Shown: positions 3,821 through 52,677 of the stretch, piece by piece
How positions within the stretch are numbered: the stretch's first letter is position 1
Layout of the letters: each line of letters begins with the position of its first letter
NCBI GenBank assembly: GCA_966211335.1
Contig: CBIHNF010000001.1
Location: forward strand, 730,847 to 794,846
Source of the DNA: an uncultured Alphaproteobacteria bacterium
GTDB lineage: Bacteria; Pseudomonadota; Alphaproteobacteria; Micavibrionales; UBA2020
Reading direction: 5' to 3'
DNA: 64,000 nt
Made by a program: the position numbers and the translations under genes
Notes under the pieces: generated by a model
The model's input: only the letters and a program-made list of their open reading frames with translations
The model's database searches: none
Told to the model about the DNA's origin: nothing

Positions 3821-4618
3821 ATGCAACGCACATTTCAAAAAGGCTTCACACTCGTCGAATTGGCGATCGTGATGACCATCATCGGTCTTCTGATCGGTGG
3901 TATTCTGAAGGGCCAGGAACTGATGGACAACGCCCGCGTCTCCGCAACGATCGCGCAGACCAAGGGTATTGAAGCCGCCACGACCAGCTTCCGCGACAGC
4001 TATAACTCGATGCCGGGCGATATTCCGAACGCCTCCACGCGCGTTCCGTCCTGCAACGCGTCCTGCAACGTTGTTGCGGCCACGGCTGGCGACGGCATCA
4101 TCGGTACGGTTGCCGGTTTCTCCGCCAACTATAACCCGCAGCTAACCACCGCCCTTGGCGGTACCGTGACGGATGAAACCCAGCTGTTCTGGACCGAACT
4201 GCTGCTCGCCAACCTGACGTCGGGCTATACCGATGCGCCGATCCGCGCAACGCCGCCCGCACCGTCGTGGGGCATCACCCAGCCCGCAGCAAAAATCGGC
4301 GGCGGCTATTACGTCGGCTACGCCGTCGGCCTGATCGGCCTTAACTCGCCGATGACGGCAGGTTCCGGCCCGTCCGGCACCGTGCTGGTGCTGGCGCAGA
4401 GCCCGACCGCAGCTATCACTGGTACGGCTGGTAACAACCCGCTCACCCCGGGTCGTGCTGCCCAGATCGACCGCAAGCTCGATGACGGCAAACCCGGTAC
4501 CGGCTTCGTCCAGGCTTATGGCGTTGCCACCAAGTGCTGGCAGTCTGCCGCTATCGCAGCCTACGACGAATCCGATACCCAGAAAGATTGCGGCCTGATC
4601 CTGCGTATTCAGGGTTAA
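3821..4618 (+). CDS. type IV pilin (prepilin, copy B; mature part identical to copy A)
   Basis: Leader MQRTFQKG|FTLVE... Residues after the cleavage site are identical to copy A. AAGGAA RBS. Terminator follows. Confidence 0.85.
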   Translation: MQRTFQKGFTLVELAIVMTIIGLLIGGILKGQELMDNARVSATIAQTKGIEAATTSFRDSYNSMPGDIPNASTRVPSCNASCNVVAATAGDGIIGTVAGFSANYNPQLTTALGGTVTDETQLFWTELLLANLTSGYTDAPIRATPPAPSWGITQPAAKIGGGYYVGYAVGLIGLNSPMTAGSGPSGTVLVLAQSPTAAITGTAGNNPLTPGRAAQIDRKLDDGKPGTGFVQAYGVATKCWQSAAIAAYDESDTQKDCGLILRIQG

Positions 4619-5944: not shown

Positions 5945-7114
5945 TCAAGGTAAAGCGCATTGAATGACGCCCGCACTGTTGAACCCGACGGCGTATTTCC
6001 CTGCCGGGCAGCTCTGCACGCCGGCAGGCGCGGGCAGCGGCACCAGTCCGCAAATGACTTTAGCTTTTTGCAGGCCGATAACGACGTTGCGATAGCCGGG
6101 CGGGGTTAAGGTTTGGGAACAAATGTTGCCGGCCGCAGGATCCGCAATGCTGCTCGGGTTCCAGCAGTTGCCACTGCCTGTATCATCACAGACGCTCGGC
6201 TGGGCGATCTGCGTGCCGGCAAGCGTGCCGGCGACGTCAAGTTTGGCCTGGGGGATGTCCACGCCAACGCCGACGCTGCCGCCGTTCACGTTATGAACAT
6301 CAGGCGTATTCGGATCGGAGGGGTTGGCGATAAAGTCCCACAGCCGCGTCAGCGACCGTTCCGTGTGGCGTACGTAGTCGTCGAAATAGGGCACTTGCGC
6401 GCGGATGCCTTGAATGAAGGTGCCGTTCAAGTTGCAGTTCTTGACCTCACTTGTACCGCCAGCAGCGCAGGGAACAGGGATTTTGCCATCCGCGGAATAG
6501 GCGCCGGCGTGGTTCTGGCCGTAGCCGATAATTACATAGTGGGTACTGGCGGCGGGGTTGGCCAAATCCTGGCCATTTTCCGTCTGGACGCCGATGGAAC
6601 CCCAAGCGTTATCGAAGCTCGCCTTGACCGTCAGCGTCTTGGAGACAGCATAGCCGAACTTGTAGCCGTAGGGATCGAGAGAGTCGCTGACGGTAACGTT
6701 CTTAATCGCGCCGGACGCACTCGCTTGCAGGGTCTTAAAAGGCACCGAACCCATGTAAACGGGGTCCATCGCCCCCACCTGCGGTGCGAGTGTCTTGCGC
6801 GCGCCCGGGAAGGTTGCCAGCGCACAATTCTCAACCCCGGCATTGGCGTCCGTGCTGCGCAGGGTCGGGTCCGCGGGGCAGGGGTAGCGGCCAAAGCCGT
6901 TGTAGAAGTCGGATATAGCTGTATCTATCTTTTCCATCGCCTTCAGCGTATCCGCGCGCTTCCCCGACGCGTTGTAAAGGTCATACAGCTTTACACCCGC
7001 GACAAGCATCAGGCTTGAAATAACCATCACCATGGCGACTTCAACCAGGGAAAAGCCGCCCCTGCTGCGGATACCTTTATGCACTCTCGTTCCCATCAGC
7101 TCTCTCCGGATCAT
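5945..7114 (-). CDS. large prepilin-type N-terminal domain protein (pilin-like adhesin paralogue 2, 389 aa)
   Basis: Start set at ATG 7114, in an ATGA overlap with the upstream stop (7111-7113). Leader MIRRELMGTRVHKGIRSRGG|FSLVEVAMV. The track's longer ORF (to 7282) would overlap the upstream gene. Confidence 0.75.
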   Translation of the reverse strand: MIRRELMGTRVHKGIRSRGGFSLVEVAMVMVISSLMLVAGVKLYDLYNASGKRADTLKAMEKIDTAISDFYNGFGRYPCPADPTLRSTDANAGVENCALATFPGARKTLAPQVGAMDPVYMGSVPFKTLQASASGAIKNVTVSDSLDPYGYKFGYAVSKTLTVKASFDNAWGSIGVQTENGQDLANPAASTHYVIIGYGQNHAGAYSADGKIPVPCAAGGTSEVKNCNLNGTFIQGIRAQVPYFDDYVRHTERSLTRLWDFIANPSDPNTPDVHNVNGGSVGVGVDIPQAKLDVAGTLAGTQIAQPSVCDDTGSGNCWNPSSIADPAAGNICSQTLTPPGYRNVVIGLQKAKVICGLVPLPAPAGVQSCPAGKYAVGFNSAGVIQCALP

Positions 7115-9588
7115 TCGCACGAGCAGGTACCGTACTGGTAGCCGCCACCGCCGGGAAGGGCGGCCGAACAGTTGGCCGTGTCGCTGTAGGTCGAGCAGGT
7201 GGTATTGGCTTGGATGGTGCGCGGCAGGGAACCACTGCCGCTGATGCTCTTCATCTTCCAGAAGTACAGGGTGATGAAGCATTCATTGTCATACGTTGTC
7301 CAGGCACCCCAAGTGCCGCTGCCGCAGTCATAGTCGCGGCGCTGGTTGTCCGCGCCCGTCATGCCGCTCGGGCACGTGGCGGCACGCGTTTCCGTTGCAC
7401 CCGCGCAGGTGCAATGGTCACCGCCGGGAATGGTCGCCCAAGCAGACCAGGAACCGCCGCTCCCGCCGCAGGTCCAGACCCGTTGCTGGCTCAGATAGCC
7501 TGAAAAAGCGGTGGGGCAGGAGGTGGTGCGGGTCTGCGGCGCCTGCGCGGCGCAGGTGCAGGTATTGGAAGGATATGTCGGCGTACCGAAGTATCCTGAT
7601 TTCAAATCCGCGTTGCAAAGCCAAGGCGTGACTTTGGTAATAGAGCCCGAGGTATAGGCCGAGCCGCAGGACAGGTATTCCGTTTTCGTATCCGGCACGC
7701 AGGTGCAAAGGTTGATGTCGTTGGTATAGCTATCGGTATCCGCGGGGCATGTATGCGTATGATGCCGCGTATGCGTGCCTGTAAAGCCGAAGGAAGGGCA
7801 ACCCAAGTTTTCATCCGTATCGATGGCGCTGCAGCTGCAAATGCCGCTTTCCCCGATTTTGCCCCACTGCCCATCGCTCTGGCACTGCCAGGTCTGGCCG
7901 TAGCTGATGCCCGAAACCGGGGTTGTGCCCACAATGGCACCCGGCAGCGCGCTAGGCAGCGTGAAGGTGTCGGGCACGCAAAGTGCGACCGTTCGCGTCG
8001 CGCATTTCAGCACGCTGGAGCAATGAATGGTGCCGTCAGCATTGATCGCGTCCATGATAGAGCCACTCGGGCAGGCGACGTTGACGGCGCTTGCCGTCGT
8101 GCAGTCGATGGCGTCATGCGAGAAGCCGACCGCAAAAGGCGGTTTCAGACCGCCGCAATTGTACTTGGGAGAGGCCGGCGACGCGCCCTTGGCGATTTCC
8201 GCGTTTGTGATGCAGGCGGTGCCGTCGTTCCGACAGACGTAATCGCCGACGGTGGTCGAAGTGTCGGTTTTGATGGTGCCGCGGGCATCCAGCGTCTGGG
8301 TGGGGCTCGACGTCTTGACGCCGATCTTGCCGGTGGATTCAGCATCCACCAGGTCGCGGATGTCATGGCCCGCGGGATCCGCGATGCGCCACAGCGGCGT
8401 ATCGGACGAGGCGTAGAATTTGATGACATCGTCATAGTGCGTGGCTTCGTTGGTCGCCTTGGTCGTCGAGCTGTAATTGGTGATTTTGAAAATTGCCTTG
8501 TTGCCGCCAGCGCAGTTGACGCCGTCCTTGGCGACGGCCGAGCACGGAACGCCGATTTTGCCGAAGTGCGTATAAGCGCCGGCACCGTCTTCGCCGCTGC
8601 TCATGATCACGAAGTGAACCTGACCGGAGCCGTTGTCCAGCTTGCGATAATCACCAGAGCCCGCCGTCGTTTCAACGTCGTCGATAACCGAAATGCCACC
8701 GCCGTTGCGGGTATAATCCGCGGCCGTGCGGGCCAGGGGCTCCGTCACCGCGTAGCGGATGCGGTTGTTATAGCCGTCATCCGCATAGCTTTCATCCATG
8801 CCAAGCGTGCGGAACGGCACGCCACCGACTCGCACACGCTGGAATGTGCCTGCGACCGGGCCCGTAGGCGGGCCGTAAAGCGCCGAGACGCGCATTCTCT
8901 TGAAGGTGCCGGAACACGGGTCGCCAAAGTTGGCGTTGGTCGCCGCGAAAGTGGCTGAGTTCAGCCCTAATACAATCCCCTCCACCACGGTTTTACTCGA
9001 CGTCGAATTGCACGCCCCAACGTTATAAGAGCCGCATATGCCGCTTGGCGTGCCGTAGGAAGCGAAAGTGATGCTCTGAATGACGTTACCCGGCGGTGCT
9101 GTCAGCGTAATATTGGTGTTTTCATCGCCTTCCCCGCAAAGAAGGTTCGAGCCCCCTACTGCCGTCTGGCTTTCCTGAATGTAGACACCGCTGCCAGTAT
9201 GAACGCCGGCTGCATTATAACTGGGCTGGAAGGTGCCGACCGCCTGGCCCGTAGCAGTACAGTCACCGGAAACCCCGAACTCCGGCTTATCGGGCGGAAC
9301 ATCGATGGGGGCGGGGCAGGGGTAATGGCCGTTACGCACGAGGTAATCGTTCAAGGCCTGAACCACCTGGCCGGTATTGGTGGTAGTGGTTATCTGTCTC
9401 TGGGTGCGGCTATAAATATTGTACGCCGAAATCAGCGATGCCATCACCAAGCTGAGGACGACGAGAACAATCGCGGTTTCAATCAGCGTATATCCTGCTT
9501 GGTGCCATTTACCCGTATTCAAGCGCGCAGGCGAAGTTGAATGCTGCTTAGACGAGCGACCAAAAAGGACCACGGGAATTCTCCACAC
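7111..9588 (-). CDS. giant prepilin-type protein with lectin-like domain and Cys-rich C-terminal modules (825 aa)
   Basis: ...KWHQAG|YTLIETAIVLVVLSL class III signal. The track start is GTG 9588. An in-frame TTG at 9522 would give a typical 10-aa leader (MNTGKWHQAG). GC3-rich codons throughout. Confidence 0.75.
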   Translation of the reverse strand: MWRIPVVLFGRSSKQHSTSPARLNTGKWHQAGYTLIETAIVLVVLSLVMASLISAYNIYSRTQRQITTTTNTGQVVQALNDYLVRNGHYPCPAPIDVPPDKPEFGVSGDCTATGQAVGTFQPSYNAAGVHTGSGVYIQESQTAVGGSNLLCGEGDENTNITLTAPPGNVIQSITFASYGTPSGICGSYNVGACNSTSSKTVVEGIVLGLNSATFAATNANFGDPCSGTFKRMRVSALYGPPTGPVAGTFQRVRVGGVPFRTLGMDESYADDGYNNRIRYAVTEPLARTAADYTRNGGGISVIDDVETTAGSGDYRKLDNGSGQVHFVIMSSGEDGAGAYTHFGKIGVPCSAVAKDGVNCAGGNKAIFKITNYSSTTKATNEATHYDDVIKFYASSDTPLWRIADPAGHDIRDLVDAESTGKIGVKTSSPTQTLDARGTIKTDTSTTVGDYVCRNDGTACITNAEIAKGASPASPKYNCGGLKPPFAVGFSHDAIDCTTASAVNVACPSGSIMDAINADGTIHCSSVLKCATRTVALCVPDTFTLPSALPGAIVGTTPVSGISYGQTWQCQSDGQWGKIGESGICSCSAIDTDENLGCPSFGFTGTHTRHHTHTCPADTDSYTNDINLCTCVPDTKTEYLSCGSAYTSGSITKVTPWLCNADLKSGYFGTPTYPSNTCTCAAQAPQTRTTSCPTAFSGYLSQQRVWTCGGSGGSWSAWATIPGGDHCTCAGATETRAATCPSGMTGADNQRRDYDCGSGTWGAWTTYDNECFITLYFWKMKSISGSGSLPRTIQANTTCSTYSDTANCSAALPGGGGYQYGTCSCE
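8872..9150 (-). other. SUEL/rhamnose-binding-lectin-like domain inside the 825-aa pilin-like protein (aa 147-239)
   Basis: The motifs FASYGTPSGIC ... FGDPCSGTFKRMRVSALY follow Gal_Lectin hallmark spacing. Confidence 0.6.
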
Positions 9589-9745
9589 AACTTGAAACTA
9601 CCACGCAAAAAGCGAGCAGGCCTCAATACACCAATATTAACTCTACAGAGCAAAGGTAAAGAAGCCCTTAAACCCGAACGGGTCGCTCCATCTCATTGAA
9701 TTGTATATTCAAAAGAGTATCTCCGCAACGCCTTGCGGAATCGGG

Positions 9746-10888
9746 TCAGGCGTTCAAAAACCAACCCGAGAGAATCCGGAAATATATTTCCTTAAGCTTT
9801 GTCATGTCATCGACGGCAACGCGCTCATCCGTTTTATGCATGGTCTGGCCGACGATGCCGAATTCGACGACAGGGCAGTGGTTGCGGATAAAGCGCGCGT
9901 CGGAGGTGCCGCCGGTGGTGCTGAGTTCGGCCTCCCGGCCCGTGACGTCCTTGATGGCCTTTTGCACCATCTCCGAGAGTTTGCCGGGCGGGGTGTAGAA
10001 GCTTTCGCCGCCGGTGCGGGTCGTCAGGGAATAGGGAATTTTTTGCGCGTCCAGCGTCTCGCGCAGCTTCTTCTCAAGGCTCGCGCCCGTATAGCTGTCG
10101 TTGAAGCGCACGTTGAACACGGCCTTTGCCGCCCGAGGAATGATATTTTCGGCGGTGTTGCCGATGTCGATATTTACAACTTCAAGATTGGACGGCTGGA
10201 AATGGGCGGTGCCCTTGTCCAGCTCCAGCCCGTCAATCGCCTGCAGCAGCGTCATCAGCTTCGGGATCGGGTTATCGGCGAGATGCGGATAGGCCACATG
10301 GCCCTGTACGCCTTCAACGCTTAAATACCCGGTAAAGGTGCCCCTGCGACCGATTTTCATCATGTCACCCAGCTGCTCGCGCGATGTCGGTTCGCCGACG
10401 ATACAGAAATCGATTTTTTCCCCGCGCGCGGCCAGCCAGTCCAGCACCTTTTTCGTGCCATTGACGGAGGGGCCTTCTTCATCGCCTGTGATGAGGAAGC
10501 TGATGGAGCCTTTGGGGTTCTGCGCCTTGATGTAATCAATCGCGGCGGCGGCGAAGCAGGCGATGGGGCCTTTCATATCGGCCGCGCCGCGCCCGCAGAC
10601 AAAGCCGTCCTTGATCTCGCCGCCGAAAGGGTCGAAGCTCCAGCTGGCTTCCGCGCCGACCGGCACCACATCCGTATGGCCCGCAAAGCAGATATGCGGC
10701 GCGGCTTTCCCCCAGCGGGCATAAAGGTTTTCAACGTCCGGCGTATCGACGTCGGAGAAGGTGAGGCGGTGGCATTCAAAGCCGTTTTCTTCCAGCAGCT
10801 TTTGCAGCAGCGTGATCGCGCCGCCCTCGGCCGGCGTCACGCTGGGGCAGCGCAGGAGATCCTGCAGGAGTTTTACAGGATCGGTCAT
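9746..10888 (-). CDS. dapE: succinyl-diaminopimelate desuccinylase
   Basis: 380 aa, M20 peptidase. LLRCPSVTPAEGGA and ICFAGHTDVVP motifs. Adjacent to dapD. Confidence 0.9.
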   Translation of the reverse strand: MTDPVKLLQDLLRCPSVTPAEGGAITLLQKLLEENGFECHRLTFSDVDTPDVENLYARWGKAAPHICFAGHTDVVPVGAEASWSFDPFGGEIKDGFVCGRGAADMKGPIACFAAAAIDYIKAQNPKGSISFLITGDEEGPSVNGTKKVLDWLAARGEKIDFCIVGEPTSREQLGDMMKIGRRGTFTGYLSVEGVQGHVAYPHLADNPIPKLMTLLQAIDGLELDKGTAHFQPSNLEVVNIDIGNTAENIIPRAAKAVFNVRFNDSYTGASLEKKLRETLDAQKIPYSLTTRTGGESFYTPPGKLSEMVQKAIKDVTGREAELSTTGGTSDARFIRNHCPVVEFGIVGQTMHKTDERVAVDDMTKLKEIYFRILSGWFLNA

Positions 10889-10893
10889 GCGGA

Positions 10894-11739
10894 TTAATCC
10901 CTGAGCAATTCGTTGATGCCGGTTTTGGAGCGCGTCTGCGCATCGACGCGTTTCACGATGACGGCGCAGTAAAGCCCCGGGCCGGGGGTGCCGTCCGGCA
11001 ACGGTTTGCCGGGCGTGGTGCCGGCGACGACGACGGAATAGGCGGGCACGCGGCCCGTGAAAACCTCGCCTGTCGCGCGGTCGATGATTTTGGTGGAAGC
11101 GCCAAGGTAGACGCCCATGGACAGCACCGCGCCTTCTTCAATGATAACGCCTTCGGCTACTTCCGAGCGCGCACCGATAAAGCAGTTGTCTTCAATAATG
11201 ACGGGGTTCGCCTGCAGGGGTTCCAAAACGCCCCCAATGCCGACGCCGCCCGAGATATGGCAGTTCTTGCCAACTTGTGCGCAGGAGCCGATGGTGACCC
11301 AGGTGTCGACCATGGTGCCTTCGCCGACATAAGCGCCGACGTTGACGAAGGATGGCATCAGCACCGCTTTCGGGGCAATAAACGCAGAGGGGCGCACGAC
11401 AGCGCCCGGCACCGCGCGGTAGCCGCCGGCCTTGAAGGCAGCTTCATCCATGCCCTCGAACTTCGAGCCCATTTTGTCGTACCAGGTGGAGCCTGCAACG
11501 CCGCCCTTCACAGGCGCGTTATCGTTGAAGCGGAAAGAAAGGAGAATGGCTTTCTTCAGCCACTGGTGCGTGACCCAAGCACCGTCAATTTTTTCCGAGA
11601 CGCGCAGCGTGCCGGCGCCCAAGAGCGCCATGATATCCTCGACCGTCTTCTTGCCGATCAGCTTCATCTTGTCGGTCAGCTGTTCGCGGCCGTCCCAGAC
11701 GTTGTTGATGGCGTTTTCAAGATCGGCGTAGTCGGACAT
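10894..11739 (-). CDS. dapD: 2,3,4,5-tetrahydropyridine-2,6-dicarboxylate N-succinyltransferase
   Basis: 281 aa. Hexapeptide-repeat C-terminal half. Typical DapD length and dapE synteny. Confidence 0.9.
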
Positions 11740-11753
11740 GATATGGCGGCCTT

Positions 11754-12422
11754 TCAGGCAGGTTTTTGGATATTGGCGAGGAACCAGTCGGGCAGTTTTT
11801 CCGCCTTCTGGTGGACGTGCGGGTGGTTGAGGTCTTCCGGCGCGACGTTCTTGCCGTGGAACCAGACCGTCGACATGCCGAGCTCATGCGCAGGGCGCAG
11901 ATTGATTTCAAGGTCCTCGAACATGCAGGCCTTTGCCGGTTCCACGTTGTGGCGCTTCAAAAACGTGTGATAGGTGTCGATCTTCGGTTTCGGCCAGTAA
12001 GCGGCGTCTTCAATCGCGAAGATATCTTCGAAATGGTGGCGGATGCCAAGGTGCTGCGTCATTGCTTCCGCAAAGGCCTTTGGCGCATTGGTGAAAACGA
12101 AGCGGCGGCCGGGCAGGTGGGCGAGCGATTCTTGCGTCACCTTGCAGGGCGGCACGACGGAGATGTCGATGTCGTGCACATGCTCGAGAAAATGATAGGG
12201 GTCGATGCCGTGTTCGGTCATGAGGCCGCGCAGCGTCGTGCCATAGGTTTTGTAGTAGTGCTTGCGCAGGCGCCCTGCTTCTTCGCGCTCCACCTTCAGG
12301 TGGTTTTGCACGAAATCGGTCATGCGGTTGCCGACTTCGACGAAGACATGGCTCTCCGCGTCATAGAGCGTGTTGTCGAGGTCAAAGACCCAAGCGTTGG
12401 TGCGGGAAAGAAGGCCGGTCAT
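11754..12422 (-). CDS. HAD-superfamily hydrolase (pyrimidine 5'-nucleotidase-like)
   Basis: Motif I is [10 protein letters not shown]. Start set at ATG 12422, because the track extension would overlap recR (ends 12433). Confidence 0.75.
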
Positions 12423-12432
12423 GATGGTGAGC

Positions 12433-13026
12433 TTAGACAGCCTTTCTGGATTTGAGCGCGGTCGCAAGGGTGCCTTCGTCAAGGTAATCGATCTGGCCGC
12501 CGATGGGCACGCCATGCGCCAGCTGCGTGACTTTCACGCCCGTGGCGGCAAGGCAGTCGGCGATGTAATGCGCCGTCGTCTGCCCGTCGATGGTGGCGTT
12601 AAGGGCGAGGATGACTTCGCGCGCGCCCCGCGTCTTCACGCGTTCGACAAGATGGGGGATGGACAGGTCTTCAGGGCCGATACCATCCAGCGCCGAAAGC
12701 GTGCCGCCAAGGACGTGGTAATAACCCTTAAAGCCGCCCGTCTTCTCAACCGCCCAGAGGTCCGAGACGTCTTCGACGACGCAGAAGACAGCGGTATCGC
12801 GCGCAGCGCTAGAGCAGATGGCGCAAGGCTTTTGCGTATCAAGGCTGTGGCATTCGGGGCATTCTTCAATCACTTCGGCCGCGCGGGCAAGCGCCTGCGC
12901 CAGCGGCAGCATCAGGCTCTCCCGGCTTTTCAGCAGGTGCAGCGCGGCTCTGCGGCCGGAGCGCGGGCCCATGCCCGGCAGGCGGGCGATGAGCTTCATC
13001 AGATGTTCGATTTCGGTCCCGATCAT
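12433..13026 (-). CDS. recR: recombination protein RecR
   Basis: 197 aa. [21 protein letters not shown] HhH motif, [16 protein letters not shown] zinc finger, Toprim region. Confidence 0.92.
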
Positions 13027-13089
13027 GGGCTTGAGTATAGGCCGCCAAAACGCCTTTTTCCAGAGAATTAGGGGAAAAGAGAAGGCGCG

Positions 13090-13806
13090 TTAGCCGCCGA
13101 AAGCATCACTGAAAATAAAGTCTTTTTCCGCGCCTTGCGCCAGCAGCAGCGGCAGGGTCGCCTCCACCATGGCGGCGGGGCCAGCCATGTAGATATTGAA
13201 CCCAGTCAGGTCGGGCATATCCGCCGTGACTGCCGCACCGATATACCCGCTGCGCCGCCCGGCGGCTTCGCCATGGGCGATCACGGGAATATAACGGAAG
13301 GCGGGCTTGCCAGCGGCAAGGTCATTGAAGAAAGCATCAAGGTAGAGATGCGCCTCATCGCGCACGCCCCAGTAAAGCGTGACACGCACATCGCCGGTTT
13401 TATGCGCCAGCTGCGCCTCGATCACGGCTTTCAGCGGCGCAATGCCGACGCCGCCGGCCAGCGCCAGCAGCGGACGTGTGGACGGACGCCAGTAATGGTC
13501 GCCAAAAGGCGCTTCAAGCGTGACAGCATCGCCTTTTTTCAAGCTGGTAAAGACGGCATTGGAAAAACCGCGGTGGCTGTTCTTGATGTGGAATTCCAAA
13601 ACGGGCTGGTGCGGCGCGGAAGCGATAGAAAACGCGCGCGGCTCCAGACCCTCAAGGCTCAAGTGTGCATATTGCCCGGCCAGAAAATCGAGCGCCGCGC
13701 CGCCCGGCAGCGCAAGCCGCAGGATGCGCGTATCGGCGGCGATATCCTCGATCGATGCGACGTGGGCGATATGCGTTGAGGCGGCGGGCAAGCGGGCATC
13801 CTGCAA
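13090..13806 (-). CDS. FNR-like FAD/NAD(P)H oxidoreductase
   Basis: RAFSIAS (RxYS-type FAD site) and LALAGGVGIAPL (NAD(P)-binding) motifs. 238 aa. Confidence 0.75.
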   Translation of the reverse strand: MQDARLPAASTHIAHVASIEDIAADTRILRLALPGGAALDFLAGQYAHLSLEGLEPRAFSIASAPHQPVLEFHIKNSHRGFSNAVFTSLKKGDAVTLEAPFGDHYWRPSTRPLLALAGGVGIAPLKAVIEAQLAHKTGDVRVTLYWGVRDEAHLYLDAFFNDLAAGKPAFRYIPVIAHGEAAGRRSGYIGAAVTADMPDLTGFNIYMAGPAAMVEATLPLLLAQGAEKDFIFSDAFGG

Positions 13807-25665: not shown

Positions 25666-27396
25666 TCAAGGCGATGGCGTCCGGCGGAGACGCGATGCGC
25701 GCGGCAGGGCGGGCAGTGCTTCGATGCCGAAGGTTTTTGCTGTCTCCGCATCGATGCCGCGCAGCTTTTCGGCGGACTCCAGGCGGAGGGTTTTCAAGGC
25801 ATCGGTTTCCGTCGGTACGGCACCCTGCGTTGCGAGGAAGTTCATCACTTCCGCCAGCGGCTTGAGGCCCGCGAAATCCGCCTTGAAGAAATTATAGCCT
25901 GCGGCGGATTGCAGCAAGGCTGTCGGCGCATCGGCGACCTCTTGCGTATAGGGCACGGCGTGCTCATCGTGCAGATAGCGCATGAAGTCTACCGCCTCTG
26001 CACCTGAAACGTTGCGTTCCATCGGAAATCCCCTACCGTAAAAAACCGGCGTCAGCAGCTTGATCATCAGCGAAGCATCGGGCAGCGCACCCGCCTCGAT
26101 CAGGATTTTCGCAAGGTCAAGGTTGCCGTTCTCGACCGCCATCTGCACGGGCGTGCCGGCGGGGCCTTTGGAGGTGAAATCATAACCATTGTCGATCAGG
26201 TAGTGCAGCATGGCGGGATAACCGTCTTCAGCGCCCATGGCAGCCGCACGTTGGCGTCGGCCGCTCGCGACAACCGCATGGACGAAGGAGCGGAGGTTAT
26301 TCCCCGCCGTTTGCGTTTTGTCGAGCCCTTGCGACTCCAGCCATTTAAAGGCGTCAAGATCGGCGCGGCAGGCGGCGTTGCCGCCGGCGCTATTATCGAA
26401 TTTTTTTGCGTTCACATCGGGTGCATAGGGGCGCAGGACTTTCAGCGTCTCCAGCGTCGGCCCCTGCGGGTCATGGTCGCCGGCATCGACAAAATGCGAG
26501 GCGTCGGGCCGTGCGCCCAGCTCAATCAGGCGGGGGATAAGGTCGTAAACGTTATGCAGCGATGCCTGACGCAGCGTCATATCGCTGTGGATTTTGTCGT
26601 TGTCTTTTGCCTGTGCAGCCACGGCTTCGAACAACTCTCGGCGCTGTTCGGGTGTAAAGGGCGCGGCGTTGTTTTTGTGGCCGATCTCTTCATGGCGCGA
26701 CATCAGCACCCAGTCGAGCGGCAGGAACTTGCCGGGATATTCATCGTAGACATGGGCGGGGTTCATGCCGCTGGTCACGAAGTCCAGCACCTTTTCAAAC
26801 GGTGCTGATTTGATGATCTCGAGGAAAACAGCCGGGCGGTAGTCGACGGTTTCAATCAACCTCTGCAGCACAGGTGCAGCCTGCGCGGCGGGGATGCGGA
26901 AAGATGAATCAAGGTGATTTGCCAGTTTTCCCTCGACGTCTGCCATGGTTGCGGCGGGGCCATTCTGTATCATGGCAAGGCTGATACCGCCGGCTCCGGA
27001 ATTTTCCTCCGCCTCGACGAAGTAGCCGGCGTCGGTCGCCGATACCTTGAAGTTCATCAGTTGCTTGCCGTCCTGCAGCAGCTGCACCTTCGCGCCCGTG
27101 ACGTTGAAGTCCCAGACATCGTCAGGAACATCTTCCATGATTTGCTCGGCGCTCAGCTTTAGCGGCACTTTCATTTTTTCCAGCGCGAAGCTGAGCTGGT
27201 AGACCTCGTTGACGAAGTTCGCCAGTAGATCTGTCTTTAGCGCTTTCGGCGTCATTCCCGCCCGCTCGGCGTCACGTTCTGGCAACGTGGGTGTAATGGG
27301 GTCGGCTTTCACGCCTTCCGCCAGCAATTCTTTGGCCGTATCCGCATCGGGAATACGCGCGGCAATTTTCTCGAACAACGCGGAGAAGACAGTCAT
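25666..27396 (-). CDS. ankyrin-repeat protein (576 aa)
   Basis: ANK-type repeats in the C-terminal half (e.g. TPVQMAVENGNLDLAKILIEAGALPD, YPAMLHYLIDNGYDF). Confidence 0.7.
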   Translation of the reverse strand: MTVFSALFEKIAARIPDADTAKELLAEGVKADPITPTLPERDAERAGMTPKALKTDLLANFVNEVYQLSFALEKMKVPLKLSAEQIMEDVPDDVWDFNVTGAKVQLLQDGKQLMNFKVSATDAGYFVEAEENSGAGGISLAMIQNGPAATMADVEGKLANHLDSSFRIPAAQAAPVLQRLIETVDYRPAVFLEIIKSAPFEKVLDFVTSGMNPAHVYDEYPGKFLPLDWVLMSRHEEIGHKNNAAPFTPEQRRELFEAVAAQAKDNDKIHSDMTLRQASLHNVYDLIPRLIELGARPDASHFVDAGDHDPQGPTLETLKVLRPYAPDVNAKKFDNSAGGNAACRADLDAFKWLESQGLDKTQTAGNNLRSFVHAVVASGRRQRAAAMGAEDGYPAMLHYLIDNGYDFTSKGPAGTPVQMAVENGNLDLAKILIEAGALPDASLMIKLLTPVFYGRGFPMERNVSGAEAVDFMRYLHDEHAVPYTQEVADAPTALLQSAAGYNFFKADFAGLKPLAEVMNFLATQGAVPTETDALKTLRLESAEKLRGIDAETAKTFGIEALPALPRASRLRRTPSP

Positions 27397-41105: not shown

Positions 41106-42287
41106 GTGTCGCAAGCCAAAAGTCCGCATGAAGATTTCATCATGACGTTCACCGTCTGCTTCATCGTGGGCGGTCTTGCCTGGGTCATCTGGCACTTCTT
41201 TCACATTCAGCTCACCTGGGCGCTGTCCCGCATCCGCATCGGCGAGCTGTATCTCGACTATTTCCTCTTCGGCGACAAGACGACCTCCGTCACTTCCGTG
41301 GGCCCTGAAACCGTTGGCGTCTGGCGCAATTACCTGCCCAAAATGGCCATCCCCGACATCAGCGTCGATGTGCTGAAACGCACGACCGTCGTCGCAGTGC
41401 AGCCGCTGCGCGTCGTCTTCCTCGCCTTCATGAGCGTCATGGTCATCGCCATTATTTTCCGCGGCCCCGGCACGCAGTACAAGCGCCGCATGGGGCTTGA
41501 AACGCTGCTGAAGGAACAGGCCAAATCCTTCCCCGCTATCCGCCCCTTCATCAAGTTCGATCCGCGCAAACTGCCCTTCCGCGCGCCCGGCCAGCCGGTG
41601 CCGGCGCAGCTGCCGCTGTTCTCCGAGCAGTTGTCGCCGGAGGAGTGGATGTCGTACCACGAAATCTCCATCGTTAACGGGCAGATCGATTATAACCGCG
41701 CCTACCAGGCCATGGCCGAGCAGCTCGGCCGCCGCTGGCAGGGGCCGGAAAAACTGCCGCTCTATGCCCAAGGCCTCTATGCCGTCTGCGCGCTGAAAAT
41801 GGTGCGCAAACGCAAAGAGAGCGTCGAGATGATGAACATGCTGTCCGATTCCTGGACCGCGGAAAAAGGCTTCCGCCCGACGGCGAAAGTGAAGTCGAAA
41901 ATCCGCGCCGTGCTGAAAAACCCGAAGCAGGGCGAGGCCTTGCGCAAGTTCGCGGATATGCACGCCTATGAAACCACCGCCCTTATGCGCTGCTTGCAGC
42001 GCGCAAGGGAGGAGGGCGGGGTTCTGGCTCCTGCAGAATTCATCTGGCTGCGCGGCGTCGACCGCACGCTGTGGTATCCGCTCAACAACCTTGGCCGCAA
42101 GTCGTACTGCGCCGAAGCCTCCGGCGCCATGGTGCATTACACTAACGAACTTATCGCCGGGCAGAAAATCCCGACGCCGCGCTTTGATGAATCTATCCGC
42201 GGCCTCGAAGGCTATATGAAAGGCCCGGCAGGGCGCGCGATACCGGAACTCGACAAATCGGCCGGCGGCCGTAAATACTTCAAGTAA
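41106..42287 (+). CDS. dotM: DotM/IcmP-like (IncI TrbA-like) type IVB coupling-complex protein
   Basis: GTG start with an AGGGGAAAG RBS. N-terminal TM helices. The C-terminal block HAYETTALMRCLQRAREEGGVLAPAEFIWLRGVDRTLWYPLNNLGR matches my recollection of the Legionella DotM conserved region. Sits upstream of the DotL-like gene. Confidence 0.65.
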   Translation: MSQAKSPHEDFIMTFTVCFIVGGLAWVIWHFFHIQLTWALSRIRIGELYLDYFLFGDKTTSVTSVGPETVGVWRNYLPKMAIPDISVDVLKRTTVVAVQPLRVVFLAFMSVMVIAIIFRGPGTQYKRRMGLETLLKEQAKSFPAIRPFIKFDPRKLPFRAPGQPVPAQLPLFSEQLSPEEWMSYHEISIVNGQIDYNRAYQAMAEQLGRRWQGPEKLPLYAQGLYAVCALKMVRKRKESVEMMNMLSDSWTAEKGFRPTAKVKSKIRAVLKNPKQGEALRKFADMHAYETTALMRCLQRAREEGGVLAPAEFIWLRGVDRTLWYPLNNLGRKSYCAEASGAMVHYTNELIAGQKIPTPRFDESIRGLEGYMKGPAGRAIPELDKSAGGRKYFK

Positions 42288-42299
42288 GGAGCTACGCTG

Positions 42300-42803
42300 A
42301 TGTTCGCCTTCACAGAGAAAGACGTCGACGCGAAAATCGTCAACAACGCGCTCGTCGTTTCCCTTCTCGGCACCGACCAGCCGCGCGTCTGGCGCGCGGA
42401 CATGACGGGCCTCAGCTCCGCCACGCTCGATGTGATGGAAGAAAAAGGCAAATATTCGGTCGTCCTGCGCCGCAACGGCGCGGCGCCTGAAAGCATCGTC
42501 ACCTTCAACGACAAGGACAGCGCCAGCTATGCCCTGCGCACCCTGTCAGACGCGATGCTGAAGGGCGAGGCGCGCGGCGTCATCCAGGGCGGCGGCGGCG
42601 TTTTCGGCACGCTGCTGCGCACGCTCGTCGTCGTCGGCATCGTGCTCGGACTTGGCAGCCTTGTCGTCAGCCACCTGTTCACGCCGCCGGCGACCGATGT
42701 GTCGACCTCCAGCCGCGTGCCCATTCCGGCGCTTGGCAAATCGTCGGGCTCGAAAGTTGAAAGCGGCAAGCCGGTGCCGGCAGACCAGCTGTTCGGCAAG
42801 TAA
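42300..42803 (+). CDS. hypothetical protein with C-terminal TM helix, between dotM-like and dotL-like genes
   Basis: AAGGAG RBS 8 nt upstream. TM helix VFGTLLRTLVVVGIVLGLGSLVV. No Cys and no recognisable domain. Confidence 0.6.
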   Translation: MFAFTEKDVDAKIVNNALVVSLLGTDQPRVWRADMTGLSSATLDVMEEKGKYSVVLRRNGAAPESIVTFNDKDSASYALRTLSDAMLKGEARGVIQGGGGVFGTLLRTLVVVGIVLGLGSLVVSHLFTPPATDVSTSSRVPIPALGKSSGSKVESGKPVPADQLFGK

Positions 42804-42828: not shown

Positions 42829-45441
42829 GTGGCGTTAAAGGAGAAATATCAGATCAAAGGCGCGGACCTCCTCCGCGATGCGCGTCCCTGGACGACGCGC
42901 ATGACCGACGCCGCGCGCGACCCTTCCACCGCCGGCGTCGCTTTTGCCATGGCGGGTATCGGCATTTTCACCGACCCCATGGTGTCGAACTTCGCAGACC
43001 TTATCTTCTTCATCTTCTGCATCTATTTTTACTGGCTGATGTCCCGGCCGGTGAAGCTGCCTTTCAAGCTGCCGAAATCTGCCGGTATCAAAGACCCCAA
43101 CTACAAGCGCCCCGACGGCTCGCTCGGCATTGCCGACGGCATTCTTTATCTTGGCAACGACAGCGACACGCAGGAAGAGATCTGGTTCACCAACTCCGAC
43201 GCGCGGACGCACTGCCTCTACCTCGGCACGACGGGTTCGGGTAAAACCTTTGGTCTTAAGTCATACGCCGTCAACGCGCTCTGCTGGGCGTCGGGCTTCA
43301 TCTACATCGACGGTAAAGCGGATACCGATTTGTGGTCGACGCTCTCCGCCATGGCGCGCCGCTTCGGCCGTGACGACGATCTGCTCATCATGAACTACAT
43401 GACGGGTAACGCGACCGGCCGCGTGCCGTCCAACACCATGAACCCGTTCTCTTCCGGTTCGGCGTCGTACCTTACCAACATGCTCGTCTCGCTGATGCCG
43501 GATTCCGAAGGCGACAACGCGATGTGGAAAGACCGCGCCGTCGCGCTCGTCTCCGCCCTTATGCCCTGCCTTGTCTGGAAGCGCGAAAACCAGAACATGC
43601 CGCTCTCCATCGGCGTCATTCGTACTTATCTTACCTTCAAGGCGGTCATTAAACTGTCGCGCGACAGCGTCATTCCTGACCTGCTGCGCTCGCCCGTGCG
43701 CGGCTACCTGAACGAGCTGCCCGGCTATGTCGACCATGTCTTCGATGACGAGGGCAACGAAAAGCCGATGCCGCCCGATGCCGGCGCCGTTGATACTTCC
43801 GTCCCGCGCCAGCAGCACGGTTACCTGTCCATGCAGTTCACGCGCTCCATGCAGTCGCTGGGTGACGACTACGGCTTTATCTTCGACACGCAGGCGGCCG
43901 ACATCGACATGCTCGACGTGGTCCTCAACCGCCGCATCCTCATCGTCCTCATCCCCGCCCTTGAAAAATCGTCGGATGAAACGGCCAACCTTGGTAAAAT
44001 CATTTCGTCCACGCTGAAGGGGATGATGGGCGCGACGCTCGGCAACTCGGTCGAGGGCTCGACCGAGACGGCGATCGAGAACAAGCCGACGCGCTCCGAA
44101 ACCCCCTTCATCGCCATCTTCGACGAGGTCGGTTACTATACGGCGCAGGGTATGGCGGTCATGGCGGCGCAGGCCCGCTCGCTCGGCTTCTCCCTCGTCT
44201 TCGCGGGTCAGGATTTACCCGCCCTTGAAAAGCGCGTGAAGGAAGAAGCGCGTTCCATCACGGCGAACTGCAACATCAAATTGTTCGGCAAGCTCGAGGA
44301 TCCGACCCAGACGAAGGACTTTTTCGAGAAAACCGTTGGTACCGCGCTTGTCACCGAAGTCTCCGGCTTCCAGCGGGGCGGCCAGCAGGGCGGCGGCGGC
44401 AGGGGCTATACCGATTCCGCCAACGCCTCCGTCCAGTCGCGCGCACGCGCGTCCTATGACGGCCTTAAAGGTTTCAACGAAGGCCGCGCCGTCGCCGCCT
44501 TCGGCAAGAGCGTTGTTGAAATTCAAGTCTATAACTCCGACATCGGCCATGCGAAGGCGATGCGCGTCCACCGCTTCCTGCCCATCCCACCGCCGGCGGA
44601 AGAAGCGCTGGAATCCCTCCGCCTCGTCAACGATGTGCTGAAGCGCATCCGCAACCCGAAGTGGAGCGCGGAAGCGCTACAGTCCCCGCCGTCCGCCGAT
44701 ATCGAGGCGCTGGCGCAGGGCTTTGCCGCCGCGAAAAAGGGCGGCGCGAACCTGCTCGAATGCGGCATCAACGGCGTTGCCGCGGTTGCCGAAGCGCATA
44801 GCACCATCAAGCCGGAAGACGCTAATGCCGCCGACACGCCGGCTGGCGATTCCACCGTCCGCAAACAGCCCGCTGCCATGGCGGAGGCCGAAAAAGCCGC
44901 TGTTGCCGCCGTTGCGAAAGCGACGGGTAATGCAGGCCCGCTCAGCTGGACGGAAGTTATTGGCGGCGCTGCCGCGGCCGAAGCAACGCAGCTGCGCCGC
45001 GACCCCCCTGTCACGGAAGCGCCTGCGCAAAAACAACAGGCCGCCGCCGCAGCCGCTGCACCGGCACCGGTTACTTGGGAAGATGTCATCAGTTCCGGCG
45101 GCCGTCAGGCGAAGGAATCCGCGGCCTCCGCCGCTTCCGCCGCCCTGCCGCAGCCGATTTCCTGGATGGATGTTATCGGCGGCGCTGCCGCAACGCTCGG
45201 CCCCAATGCCGTGCAGGAAATGACGCTTGGCAGCCTCACGGGCATGCCCGACCTTGCCGGCGTCGGCCCCGCCGATGCGACACCGCCGTGGCAGGCAGCA
45301 GCGGAAACGCCGGCGGCGCCTGCGGAAAGCCCGCTGAAGGCGCCTGAAGACAATACCGTCAAGTCACCGCTCAGCTGGGCCGATGTTATCGGCGCGGCGA
45401 CACAAACGGCTGCCAAAGAAGGCGGCGAAGCTGCGGAATAA
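42829..45441 (+). CDS. dotL: DotL/IcmO-like (IncI TrbC-like) type IV coupling protein ATPase
   Basis: 870 aa. Two N-terminal TM helices. Walker A LGTTGSGKT. Walker B region FIAIFDEVGYY. Blocks LNRRILIVLIPALEKSSDE and AQARSLGFSLVFAGQDLPAL resemble IcmO as I recall it. GTG start. Confidence 0.8.
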   Translation: MALKEKYQIKGADLLRDARPWTTRMTDAARDPSTAGVAFAMAGIGIFTDPMVSNFADLIFFIFCIYFYWLMSRPVKLPFKLPKSAGIKDPNYKRPDGSLGIADGILYLGNDSDTQEEIWFTNSDARTHCLYLGTTGSGKTFGLKSYAVNALCWASGFIYIDGKADTDLWSTLSAMARRFGRDDDLLIMNYMTGNATGRVPSNTMNPFSSGSASYLTNMLVSLMPDSEGDNAMWKDRAVALVSALMPCLVWKRENQNMPLSIGVIRTYLTFKAVIKLSRDSVIPDLLRSPVRGYLNELPGYVDHVFDDEGNEKPMPPDAGAVDTSVPRQQHGYLSMQFTRSMQSLGDDYGFIFDTQAADIDMLDVVLNRRILIVLIPALEKSSDETANLGKIISSTLKGMMGATLGNSVEGSTETAIENKPTRSETPFIAIFDEVGYYTAQGMAVMAAQARSLGFSLVFAGQDLPALEKRVKEEARSITANCNIKLFGKLEDPTQTKDFFEKTVGTALVTEVSGFQRGGQQGGGGRGYTDSANASVQSRARASYDGLKGFNEGRAVAAFGKSVVEIQVYNSDIGHAKAMRVHRFLPIPPPAEEALESLRLVNDVLKRIRNPKWSAEALQSPPSADIEALAQGFAAAKKGGANLLECGINGVAAVAEAHSTIKPEDANAADTPAGDSTVRKQPAAMAEAEKAAVAAVAKATGNAGPLSWTEVIGGAAAAEATQLRRDPPVTEAPAQKQQAAAAAAAPAPVTWEDVISSGGRQAKESAASAASAALPQPISWMDVIGGAAATLGPNAVQEMTLGSLTGMPDLAGVGPADATPPWQAAAETPAAPAESPLKAPEDNTVKSPLSWADVIGAATQTAAKEGGEAAE

Positions 45442-45465
45442 TTTGCGGCATAAAGGAAGCGCATC

Positions 45466-45804
45466 ATGGAAATTTTCAAAAAGCTCGGCATTCTGTTTTT
45501 CGTTCCCGGCGTCGTCATGCTGGTATGGGATCTGGTCGAGCAGTTCTTCGTCCACAACCGCTTCATGATCCGCAGCTTCAAGGAATGGGGCAATTTCATT
45601 TCCGTGACAGGCTACAGCAAACTGCAGAACGGCATGCATGTCATCTTTCCGTCCGACATCTGCGCCAAAATCGGCGATTATCCCGCGCCACTCGTTTTCA
45701 TCGTGCCGGGTGTCGTTTTTTACCTGCTCTACCGCATCTTCTTCATGGTCTTCGGCGGCAAGAGCGGCGGCGACGGCGGCTTTGTCTATAAATCGCGCCA
45801 CTAA
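45466..45804 (+). CDS. small membrane protein (112 aa)
   Basis: AAAGGAAG RBS. Two hydrophobic helices. 24 nt after the dotL-like stop. Confidence 0.55.
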   Translation: MEIFKKLGILFFVPGVVMLVWDLVEQFFVHNRFMIRSFKEWGNFISVTGYSKLQNGMHVIFPSDICAKIGDYPAPLVFIVPGVVFYLLYRIFFMVFGGKSGGDGGFVYKSRH

Positions 45805-45894: not shown

Positions 45895-46614
45895 ATGCTC
45901 GGCGGTGCTTTCCGGCGCAAGAAGGACGATGACTGGCTCGTGCAGCTCGAGCGCAGCGATCCCAACCGCGCCCTAGTGCAATACGCCGGTGCCGGTAAAA
46001 CAGCGAAGGTCGAAGAATTATTGCAGCAGGGTACTGACCCTGATCTGCTGGTGCTGTTCGATATCACCGTCGATACCGTCGCCGATGCCGCGCTGAACGC
46101 CGCCGCCGAAAACGGCCATATCAAAACCGCCGAGGCCCTGCTGAAAGCGGGCGCGAACTTGAACATCAAGGTCGAGAACGATTATACACCCCTGCTCAGC
46201 GCCGCGCTGAACGGCAAGGCCGAGATGATCAGCTTCCTCGCCGGTAAAGGCGCAGACCTTGAAGCGCGGGATGATATGTACCAGCGCACCCCGCTGCAGC
46301 TCGCCTGCCGCATGGGGCATATCGCCGCCGTGCGCGCGCTGATTGCAGCAGGGGCCGACCGCACTTCGCGCGATGGCGACAATCTCCGCGCGCAGGATAT
46401 GATCTGCGATCAGGCAGGCTTAGAGCCGCAACAGAAGCTAAATGTCCACAAGACTATTCTTGAGCTGTTTTTTCAGGCCGAGCAGAACGACAAGCGCATC
46501 GCCGCCGAAAAAGCCGCCGCGCTAAAGGTGGAACAGGAGGCCTTGAAAAAAGCGCCCGTCCTGCAGCGCGGCATGAATCCGGTCCGCACCGTCCGCTTCA
46601 AAGGACCGCAGTAG
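45895..46614 (+). CDS. ankyrin-repeat protein (239 aa)
   Basis: Clear ANK repeats (NAAAENGHIKTAEALLKAGANLN, TPLLSAALNGKAEMISFLAGKGADL, TPLQLACRMGHIAAVRALIAAGAD). AAGGA RBS. Confidence 0.85.
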   Translation: MLGGAFRRKKDDDWLVQLERSDPNRALVQYAGAGKTAKVEELLQQGTDPDLLVLFDITVDTVADAALNAAAENGHIKTAEALLKAGANLNIKVENDYTPLLSAALNGKAEMISFLAGKGADLEARDDMYQRTPLQLACRMGHIAAVRALIAAGADRTSRDGDNLRAQDMICDQAGLEPQQKLNVHKTILELFFQAEQNDKRIAAEKAAALKVEQEALKKAPVLQRGMNPVRTVRFKGPQ

Positions 46615-52179: not shown

Positions 52180-52677
52180 TCAGAGCGCGAAGCTGCGCGG
52201 CAGCGGCTTGTCTTCCGGCTCCGGCAGGCCGGCGGCCTTGCGCAGCGTCGTCAGTTCCTTCTTCGCTTCCAGCAGCTGCTGGCGCAAAAGGTCGCATTCG
52301 TAATCCTTGCGCATGAAGCGCAGCTTCACGAGATAGTCATTCGCCTGTTCCGACGGCACGGCGGAGGCAAAATCAAAACCCTTGTCGACCAGCAGGCGGA
52401 ACATATCAACATTACCGGCATAGACGGTCGAGCGCAGGGAAGAATTGCTGATGGCGCGTGTGCCAGGTGCCGCCAGCAGCATTTCGGCGAGGCGCACCTG
52501 ATTTTTATCGACCGCGCGGGTGAGCGGGTCGTTGAGCGCTTCCGGCGGCGCGTCGATGTTCGACTTCAGCAGTTCCTGCAGCTGCGCGGTGTCGCCGTTT
52601 TTCACGGCGGCCATCAGGCTCCGGCGGTAGATGGTGACGGCATCATCGGTGCCGCCGAACAGGGTGCGCAGGCTCAT
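52180..52677 (-). CDS. ANK-like repeat protein (165 aa)
   Basis: LMAAVKNGDTAQLQELLKSNID, DPLTRAVDKNQVRLAEMLL and TVYAGNVDMFRLLVDKGFDF. Confidence 0.55.
   Translation of the reverse strand: MSLRTLFGGTDDAVTIYRRSLMAAVKNGDTAQLQELLKSNIDAPPEALNDPLTRAVDKNQVRLAEMLLAAPGTRAISNSSLRSTVYAGNVDMFRLLVDKGFDFASAVPSEQANDYLVKLRFMRKDYECDLLRQQLLEAKKELTTLRKAAGLPEPEDKPLPRSFAL

Follow-up and report, generated by a model that had tools for sequence, protein, structure and literature searches.

Coupling-protein tails as docking platforms

Substrate choice by a coupling protein is best understood in Legionella, in which a single folded adaptor module is carried on the tail of the coupling ATPase DotL; the type IVB coupling complex of this bacterium has reportedly been described by Kwak 2017, Kim 2020, and Meir 2020 (PDB 6sz9/7ovb). 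From residue 572 on, the Legionella tail lies in a groove of DotM; its helices α14-16 bind DotN, and residues 672-783 bind IcmS-IcmW (PMC7280309), two proteins gained within the Legionellales (PMC8896642). The tails of type IV coupling proteins (T4CPs) are docking sites for auxiliary proteins, adaptors or substrates, and in the F TraD-TraM and R388 TrwB-TrwA interactions the tail recruits the substrate directly (PMC12857230). The DotL protein considered here is encoded in a 64-kb stretch of a Micavibrio-like alphaproteobacterial chromosome (hereafter the window, to which all coordinates refer). Its C-terminal tail, most of which is predicted to be disordered, carries four copies of a short tryptophan motif, P.[ST]W.[DE]VI[GS]; this array is confined to DotL tails, is under strong selection at the protein level, and probably serves to dock several copies of a partner protein.

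An open reading frame (ORF) at 42829..45441 (+), whose 870-aa translation agrees with an earlier sequence-only reading of this DNA, encodes a DotL/IcmO-type type IVB coupling ATPase (a VirD4-family T4CP). That reading had called the protein DotL-like, and this is borne out by the dotM gene upstream and by the only PDB match that phmmer returns, L. pneumophila IcmO (DotL; 6sz9_A, E = 1.2e-140): query aa 6-598 are colinear with residues 8-602, and the homology to Legionella ends at aa 598. Pfam TraG-D_C is found at 36.7 bits (cut-off 22), and the Walker A sequence at aa 133-140, GTTGSGKT, does not vary among 107 sequences. The top NCBIfam model is that of IncI-type TrbC (NF041447, an equivalog model), at 386.9 bits against a cut-off of 800 bits; the protein is thus a homologue of TrbC rather than an equivalog. 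Judged by its sequence and by the neighbouring dotM, it is a member of the DotL/IcmO-type type IVB coupling proteins. Its parts are laid out as follows:

42829..44625 (+): DotL core, aa 1-599; N-terminal hydrophobic helices and an FtsK/HerA-type ATPase
44626..44823 (+): proximal tail module, aa 600-665; conserved two-helix element
44824..45438 (+): distal tail, aa 666-870 (~205 aa); predicted to be disordered, rich in Ala/Pro/Gly/Glu, bears the motif array
44935..44964 (+): copy 1, GPLSWTEVIG, aa 703-712; orthologue consensus GPLSWmEVIGG; AlphaFold2 (AF2) helix 707-710
45064..45093 (+): copy 2, APVTWEDVIS, aa 746-755; orthologue consensus KPVSWeDVI[SG]; AF2 helix 751-754
45151..45180 (+): copy 3, QPISWMDVIG, aa 775-784; orthologue consensus aPLSWMDVIG; AF2 helix 779-783
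45364..45393 (+): copy 4, SPLSWADVIG, aa 846-855, near the C-terminus; orthologue consensus PlSWADVIG

A tryptophan motif array under selection

The protein has exactly four matches to P.[ST]W.[DE]VI[GS], which cover aa 704-712, 747-755, 776-784 and 847-855 (nt 44938-44964, 45067-45093, 45154-45180 and 45367-45393). The four spaced copies of the sequence-only reading are thus all present, and the position it gave for the last of them, nt 45364, is that of the Ser preceding the copy-4 Pro and no error. A six-frame search of the window finds no further [ST]W.[DE]VI. Copy 2 is the most variable of the four and is lost in some orthologues. A "PPW[DEQA]" element at aa 819-821 (45283-45291), between copies 3 and 4, was considered as a fifth motif and set aside: it is conserved in 7 of 117 orthologues, and the extra Trp in this context is probably not a general motif.

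If the copies had arisen by random drift of a low-complexity tail, as the sequence-only reading allowed for, orthologues should lack them. Instead, 117 of 120 orthologues (the best matches, at 53-100% identity, of a large family found in a search of 5.8 billion proteins) have one to five tail copies, with four in 60 sequences, three in 35 and two in 18; this argues that the motif is a selected element. Two of the remaining three sequences are truncated, and in the third a variant was missed by the pattern or the motif is absent. Across 392 instances, the motif has the consensus [GA]-P-[LMIV]-[SNT]-W-x-[DE]-[VIL]-[IL]-G: the Trp is present in 100%, S/N/T/D at -1 in 99%, Gly at +5 in 91%, Asp/Glu at +2 in 86%, Ile at +4 in 82%, and Pro at -3 in 79%. 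The motifs are spaced by 24-209 residues, and the last Trp lies a median of 16 residues from the C-terminus. Signatures specific to individual copies are kept across species, which indicates that the duplication is old.

In an alignment of 118 sequences, the motifs stand out as conserved islands among gap-rich, unconserved linker columns. Against eight close orthologues, the motifs are 75-89% identical, close to the ATPase core (83-92%), and the linkers 32-64%. Short motifs (3-12 residues) preserved as islands in fast-evolving, disordered flanks are what defines an array of short linear motifs or molecular recognition features, and the tail has this appearance. Synonymous differences amount to 10-47% within the motifs vs 27-48% in the core, and the four window copies are identical at only 18-26 of 36 nt; because synonymous sites change as they do in the core and the copies differ so much from one another, selection must act on the peptide, not on DNA or RNA. 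The motif is under strong protein-level purifying selection.

These data leave a negligible chance that the array is a product of drift in low-complexity sequence, that it was recently duplicated as DNA, or that it reflects some feature of the minus strand. The biased composition of the tail and two long minus-strand ORFs (44529..45089 and 45105..45599) speak for such origins, but among 200,000 tail shuffles none has the core W.[DE]VI, loose as it is, twice or more (177 have it once), and this, together with the conservation over 120 orthologues and core-like synonymous variation, refutes them. The divergence of the copies at the DNA level is at odds with recent duplication, and GC content at third codon positions marks the plus-strand dotL frame as coding, the long minus-strand ORFs over the same DNA being shadow ORFs.

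The multi-copy motif is confined to DotL tails. In 1.44 Mb of DNA (the window and related loci, read in six frames), all 81 of 81 strict matches fall within DotL ORFs. A 30-column profile built from 101 motif units was run against 1.84 billion representative proteins (E < 1e-3); the 17 significant proteins are all DotL tails or fragments of DotL tails, and no multi-copy motif was found outside DotL among these representatives, of which single-copy proteins would score below the threshold.

Predicted structure of the tail

The sequence-only reading had described about 230 C-terminal aa as low-complexity. This is true of aa ~666-870 but not of aa ~600-665, a conserved two-helix module that is predicted confidently: AF2 places helices at 623-637 and 642-656 with a predicted local distance difference test score (pLDDT) of 88-95, and the conserved block of the module reads VL.RLRNPKW...DI.ALA.GF...ECGI.AVAAVAEAHGTI.PEDA. 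Residues 601-870 contain 26% Ala, 9% Pro, 8% Gly and 7% Glu, and the tail is net negative; pLDDT is mostly <50 in the distal tail and <50 in the linkers.

The repeat had also been called an amphipathic peptide. A short W-x-[DE]-V-I repeat is indeed what is seen, but the residue statistics and AF2 are better described by a capped one-turn helix than by generic amphipathicity. The N-terminal capping box with a hydrophobic staple is an established helix-capping pattern, and the residue preferences of the 392 instances fit it: N' is L/M/I/V, the N-cap S/N/T/D (99%), N1 the Trp, N3 D/E/Q, N4 V/I/L, and N5 likewise hydrophobic (I/L); the Gly that comes after N5 fits a helix stop, and the preceding Pro would block extension of the helix at its N-terminal side. 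AF2 shows isolated one-turn helices at copies 1 to 3 (listed above) amid low-confidence sequence; local pLDDT at copy 3, about 68, is the maximum for the distal tail. In such a model, each motif may present a small, partly pre-formed Trp/Ile knob, as is typical of peptides that dock into pockets. The eukaryotic LIR (Atg8-binding) motif, which S-W-x-[DE]-V resembles, was dismissed as a parallel because DotL is a component of an inner-membrane machine and is not translocated.

Relation to the Legionella adaptor platform

How much of this tail has a counterpart in Legionella? Alignment to Legionellales tails with hhalign gives a weak match over aa ~580-650 (probability 29%, E = 5.8e-4), which covers the proximal module only; this module may be equivalent to the DotN-binding helices of Legionella DotL. 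Nothing aligned to the IcmSW-binding region (DotL 672-783) by PDB search, BLASTP or hhalign. The tail has no match in the PDB at E <= 10, BLASTP against the L. pneumophila DotL tail finds no significant similarity, and the loose motif is present in 0 of 27 Legionellales DotL tails, that of L. pneumophila being without any Trp. The earlier proposal that the tail is unrelated to the Legionella adaptor platform is therefore upheld for its distal part. Neither IcmS nor IcmW is encoded in the window. With no match to the IcmSW-binding region, and with IcmS and IcmW being of Legionellales origin, the W-array stands at the site of the adaptor platform in a lineage where these adaptors would not be expected.

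Motif turnover among Micavibrio-like bacteria

In a scan of GTDB species genomes, 416 proved to have a relative. The best 80 of the 416 belong to Micavibrio sp. or to unclassified alphaproteobacterial metagenome-assembled genomes (MAGs), with complete M. aeruginosavorus genomes among them. Complete tails with an array, defined as two or more strict copies, number 29 and come without exception from nearer relatives, whose cores are ~71% identical or more. Of the 44 tails below this copy number, 42 are from sister clades (core 63-66%), none of which (0/42) has a W-array, and two are from nearer relatives with one copy each. A single related W-element is found in 14 of the 44, including the two nearer relatives; its sister-clade form is PLSW[DE]ELV, without the final Gly. 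Other motifs occur in these tails: [ND]PM[GS]FF in 29 of 44, and KP[AS][IV]FGG, in one to seven copies, in 8 of 44; neither is found in any tail with a W-array. The motif is clade-specific, a point that the sequence-only reading had put up for checking: the array marks one Micavibrio-like sub-clade and is absent from sister clades and from Legionellales. The distal tail is thus a fast-evolving disordered region whose motif repertoire has been swapped between neighbouring clades, and the array in the clade of the window probably arose by amplification of one ancestral W-element.

Six sister-clade DotL tails (at ~11900-13300 of each locus) bear three to seven spaced FG-like KPAIFGGAP/KPSVFGGAP repeats set in Pro/Ala/Thr-rich disorder. 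Most sister tails also have [ND]PM[GS]FF and a C-terminal amphipathic helix, ETxxILxxAAKxxxKxIF, which occurs in no W-array tail.

In M. aeruginosavorus HCB189 (NZ_CP195303.1), dotM, a gene like the one that lies between dotM and dotL in the window, and dotL occupy 8007-12598 of the extracted locus; a second M. aeruginosavorus locus is arranged likewise, and the trio lies a few kb from argS, gyrB, recF, dnaN and dnaA. The 2011 genome paper on M. aeruginosavorus ARL-13 found no evidence of a type IV secretion system (PMC3189940); that analysis seems to have missed the Dot/Icm-type genes. Micavibrio-type dotM-dotL contigs are also filed under unrelated names, namely Patescibacteria (two loci), Bdellovibrionales (two), Alcanivorax (one) and Pseudobdellovibrionaceae (three), which looks like mis-binning or mislabelling of MAGs.

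Gene neighbourhood and candidate partners

Three neighbours of dotL bear on the search for a partner:

41106..42287 (+): dotM/icmP, 393 aa; coupling-complex partner of DotL, Pfam DotM_C E = 8e-49
42300..42803 (+): p167, 167 aa, between dotM and dotL; beta-rich N-domain of ~95 aa plus a helix, one transmembrane (TM) helix
45466..45804 (+): p112, 112-aa small membrane protein 3' of dotL; candidate clade-specific partner

DotM scores 168 bits with the NCBIfam model DotM_IcmP_IVB, under its cut-off of 230 bits, and its synteny with dotL is kept in 70+ related loci. Throughout the order, p167 keeps its place between dotM and dotL. Neither p167 nor p112, nor the DotL tail, has a Pfam, NCBIfam or PHROG family, and profile and sequence searches find no PDB match for p167 or p112. 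AF2 models p167 (mean pLDDT 63) with six strands, a helix at 72-96 and a TM segment at 102-127; the top Foldseek matches are PTB/PH/FERM-F3 peptide-binding domains, none of them significant (best E = 0.06). After the TM helix, p167 has a conserved C-terminal end, G-x-P-V-[SP]-A-D-x-[LF]-[FL]; given a cytoplasmic N-terminal domain, this end would lie in the periplasm. The protein may be an undescribed subunit of the coupling complex. In 19 W-clade loci, but in no sister-clade locus, a p112-like ORF (105-114 aa, one or two hydrophobic segments) has its start at -3 to +18 nt relative to the stop codon of dotL. The candidates for a partner are p112, p167, DotM, or a domain common to the substrates.

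In ten of the sister loci, a gene of 230-260 aa overlaps or abuts the dotL stop, occupying the slot of p112 in the W clade; its product has an N-terminal hydrophobic segment, GNA[FL]F.VLIGVALF, that resembles a pseudopilin-like leader.

The remaining genes of the window are those of an ordinary chromosome (FtsK, Kup, DapD, ribonucleotide reductase, pyruvate kinase, a flagellar rod protein), and none of them is a further secretion-system gene. Other type IVB genes (IcmB/DotO, DotB, DotC/D/G/H) are found neither in the window nor in the flanks of the HCB189 dotL. In a marine survey, Dot/Icm-like pT4SSi systems (IcmB and >6 component genes) were recorded in seven Micavibrionales (PMC9418006).

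Three ankyrin-repeat proteins are encoded in the window, at 25666-27396 (-), 45895-46614 (+) and 52180-52677 (-); one of them lies two genes downstream of dotL and is syntenic in seven related loci (37-43% identity). Among the Dot/Icm effectors of Legionella and Coxiella, ankyrin proteins are typical, and the presence of three in this window raises the question of whether this lineage targets eukaryotes instead of, or besides, bacteria. A paralogous pair with prepilin-type N-terminal methylation motifs is encoded at 2829-3629 (+) and 3821-4618 (+), and near it, at 7111-9588 (-), an 825-aa protein with an SUEL-type galactose/rhamnose-binding lectin domain; it is possible that the pair and the lectin-domain protein are predator attachment factors.

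A proposed multivalent docking array and its rivals

What could such an array be for? Since the tails of T4CPs are known as docking sites, the best reading is that the copies are multivalent short linear docking motifs for a putative clade-specific partner, to which we assign a probability of about 0.55. The motifs would sit on a disordered, cytoplasmic DotL tail below the hexameric ATPase, each a self-capped one-turn helix that displays a Trp/Ile knob between flexible, mildly acidic linkers. With two to five copies per chain, a hexamer could present up to 24 (for a four-copy tail) or 30 motifs below the mouth of the translocation channel, at the position of the IcmS/IcmW-binding region of Legionella and doing an equivalent job. 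Several copies of one clade-specific partner, be it an adaptor/chaperone, a subunit of the coupling complex or a domain shared by substrates, would thereby be bound with high avidity near the ATPase. Of this scheme, we infer the helical micro-structure, the cytoplasmic location (from homology to Legionella), the docking function and the multivalency. Different repeated motifs in sister tails, as observed, are what one would expect if the interface and its partner co-evolve quickly.

Several points weigh against this proposal. None of the neighbouring genes follows the motif exactly: about ten motif-bearing loci have no p112, and p167 is present in motif-less clades too. The full-length AF2 model has low confidence (mean pLDDT 63, predicted template modelling score 0.45), with copy 4 as coil. 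The rest of the secretion machine lies outside the window, and its presence in this genome rests on the survey of other Micavibrionales (PMC9418006).

The partner could also be found within the coupling complex itself. Here the motifs would bind the DotL ATPase/all-alpha domain in cis or in trans, DotM, or p167, and act as latches for hexamer assembly or channel gating, much as the Legionella tail, which runs along DotM and DotN, is integral to its complex (PMC7280309). Such a role is rather unlikely, though the best placed of the rivals: dotM, p167 and dotL form a conserved trio, and the soluble domain of p167 weakly resembles peptide-binding PH/PTB folds, but p167 and DotM are conserved where tails have no motif, and four to five copies exceed what a single latch needs. 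The full-length AF2 model shows no confident docking of the motifs on the core (motif pLDDT ~41-68), although this model is poor. A slightly smaller chance goes to direct capture of secretion substrates, in which effectors would share a Trp-knob-binding domain and the tail would serve as a queue or "fishing line" with no adaptor in between. The precedents of R388 TrwB-TrwA and F TraD-TraM (PMC12857230) favour it, multivalency would suit many substrates, and the IcmS/IcmW adaptors are a Legionellales innovation (PMC8896642). No effector set is known in this lineage, however, no shared recognition domain was identified in the window, and direct capture is a sub-case of the docking array rather than an alternative to it.

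That the motifs are interfacial membrane anchors, with Trp/Ile/Val one-turn helices that dip into the inner leaflet and tether the tail, is improbable. Short amphipathic elements with Trp are common at interfaces, and DotL is anchored in the membrane at its N-terminus, but an invariant acidic residue, acidic flanks and a net negative tail would be unfavourable at an anionic bacterial membrane. Conservation of P, S and G is also tighter than is usual for lipid binding, and sister clades replace the motif with quite different ones.

A possible second solution in the DotL family

No description of this tail motif, or of repeated motifs in any T4CP tail, was found in the literature. The T4CP tail as a docking platform is known; what would be new is a repeated, capped-helix Trp array in place of the folded adaptor-binding region, with clade-specific swapping of motifs. 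If so, the DotL family has found a second solution besides the one known from Legionella, in which linear motifs under strong selection are repeated along a disordered tail and differ from one clade to its neighbour. The tail is also a naturally occurring example of how motifs turn over within disordered bacterial sequence. With one Trp per copy, the array also offers a short, mutable handle for finding the partner that it recruits, and hence the Dot/Icm-type substrates of predatory Alphaproteobacteria.

A bolder view, offered tentatively and as a rather improbable one, is that Micavibrio-like predators have replaced the adaptor-binding domain by arrays of aromatic motifs (W here; FG-like KPAIFGG and NPMGFF in the sisters) that form a multivalent capture brush on the hexamer and recruit substrates directly at the cytoplasmic channel mouth. 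A Dot/Icm-type system of this kind would select its substrates in a new way, without an adaptor, and might deliver proteins into bacterial prey instead of eukaryotic hosts. Should the substrates turn out to be the partner, or bacterial prey the target of the system, the docking array would gain greatly in value.

How does the array compare with what is known elsewhere? Legionella DotL is of the same family and shares the dotM-dotL context, a long C-terminal extension after the ATPase, and probably the tail as a platform for auxiliary proteins, but its distal tail (672-783) is non-repetitive, Trp-free and folded around one IcmS-IcmW heterodimer; the 167-aa gene that separates dotM and dotL here is a further difference. 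The sister-clade Micavibrio proteins have an orthologous core, the same gene trio, the proximal module, and a disordered Pro/Ala-rich tail with short aromatic motifs; the repeated motifs are others, and they have at most one W-like element and no W-array. TrbC of IncI/IncM plasmids, the counterpart of DotL in I-type conjugation, has a homologous ATPase core, 64-87% of which aligns at 29-33% identity, but the alignment to the plasmid proteins stops at aa 583 or earlier, and the window gene is chromosomal, among housekeeping genes.

Short aromatic motifs that are conserved as islands, joined by flexible linkers and bound with avidity are also familiar from eukaryotes, in the FG repeats of nucleoporins and in NPxY/F motifs bound by PTB domains. 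Here the likeness is one of analogy only, with no homology: the present array is bacterial and would be cytoplasmic. In TraD of the F plasmid, a disordered tail inserts a short acidic/aromatic peptide into pockets of the TraM tetramer, and avidity comes from the many tails of a hexamer. The window protein resembles TraD in having a coupling-protein tail that is disordered and bears a short peptide motif, with binding predicted in this case; but where TraD has one terminal motif per chain and serves conjugative DNA transfer, the DotL tails of this clade carry two to five internal copies, of unrelated sequence, on a chromosomal Dot/Icm-type protein.

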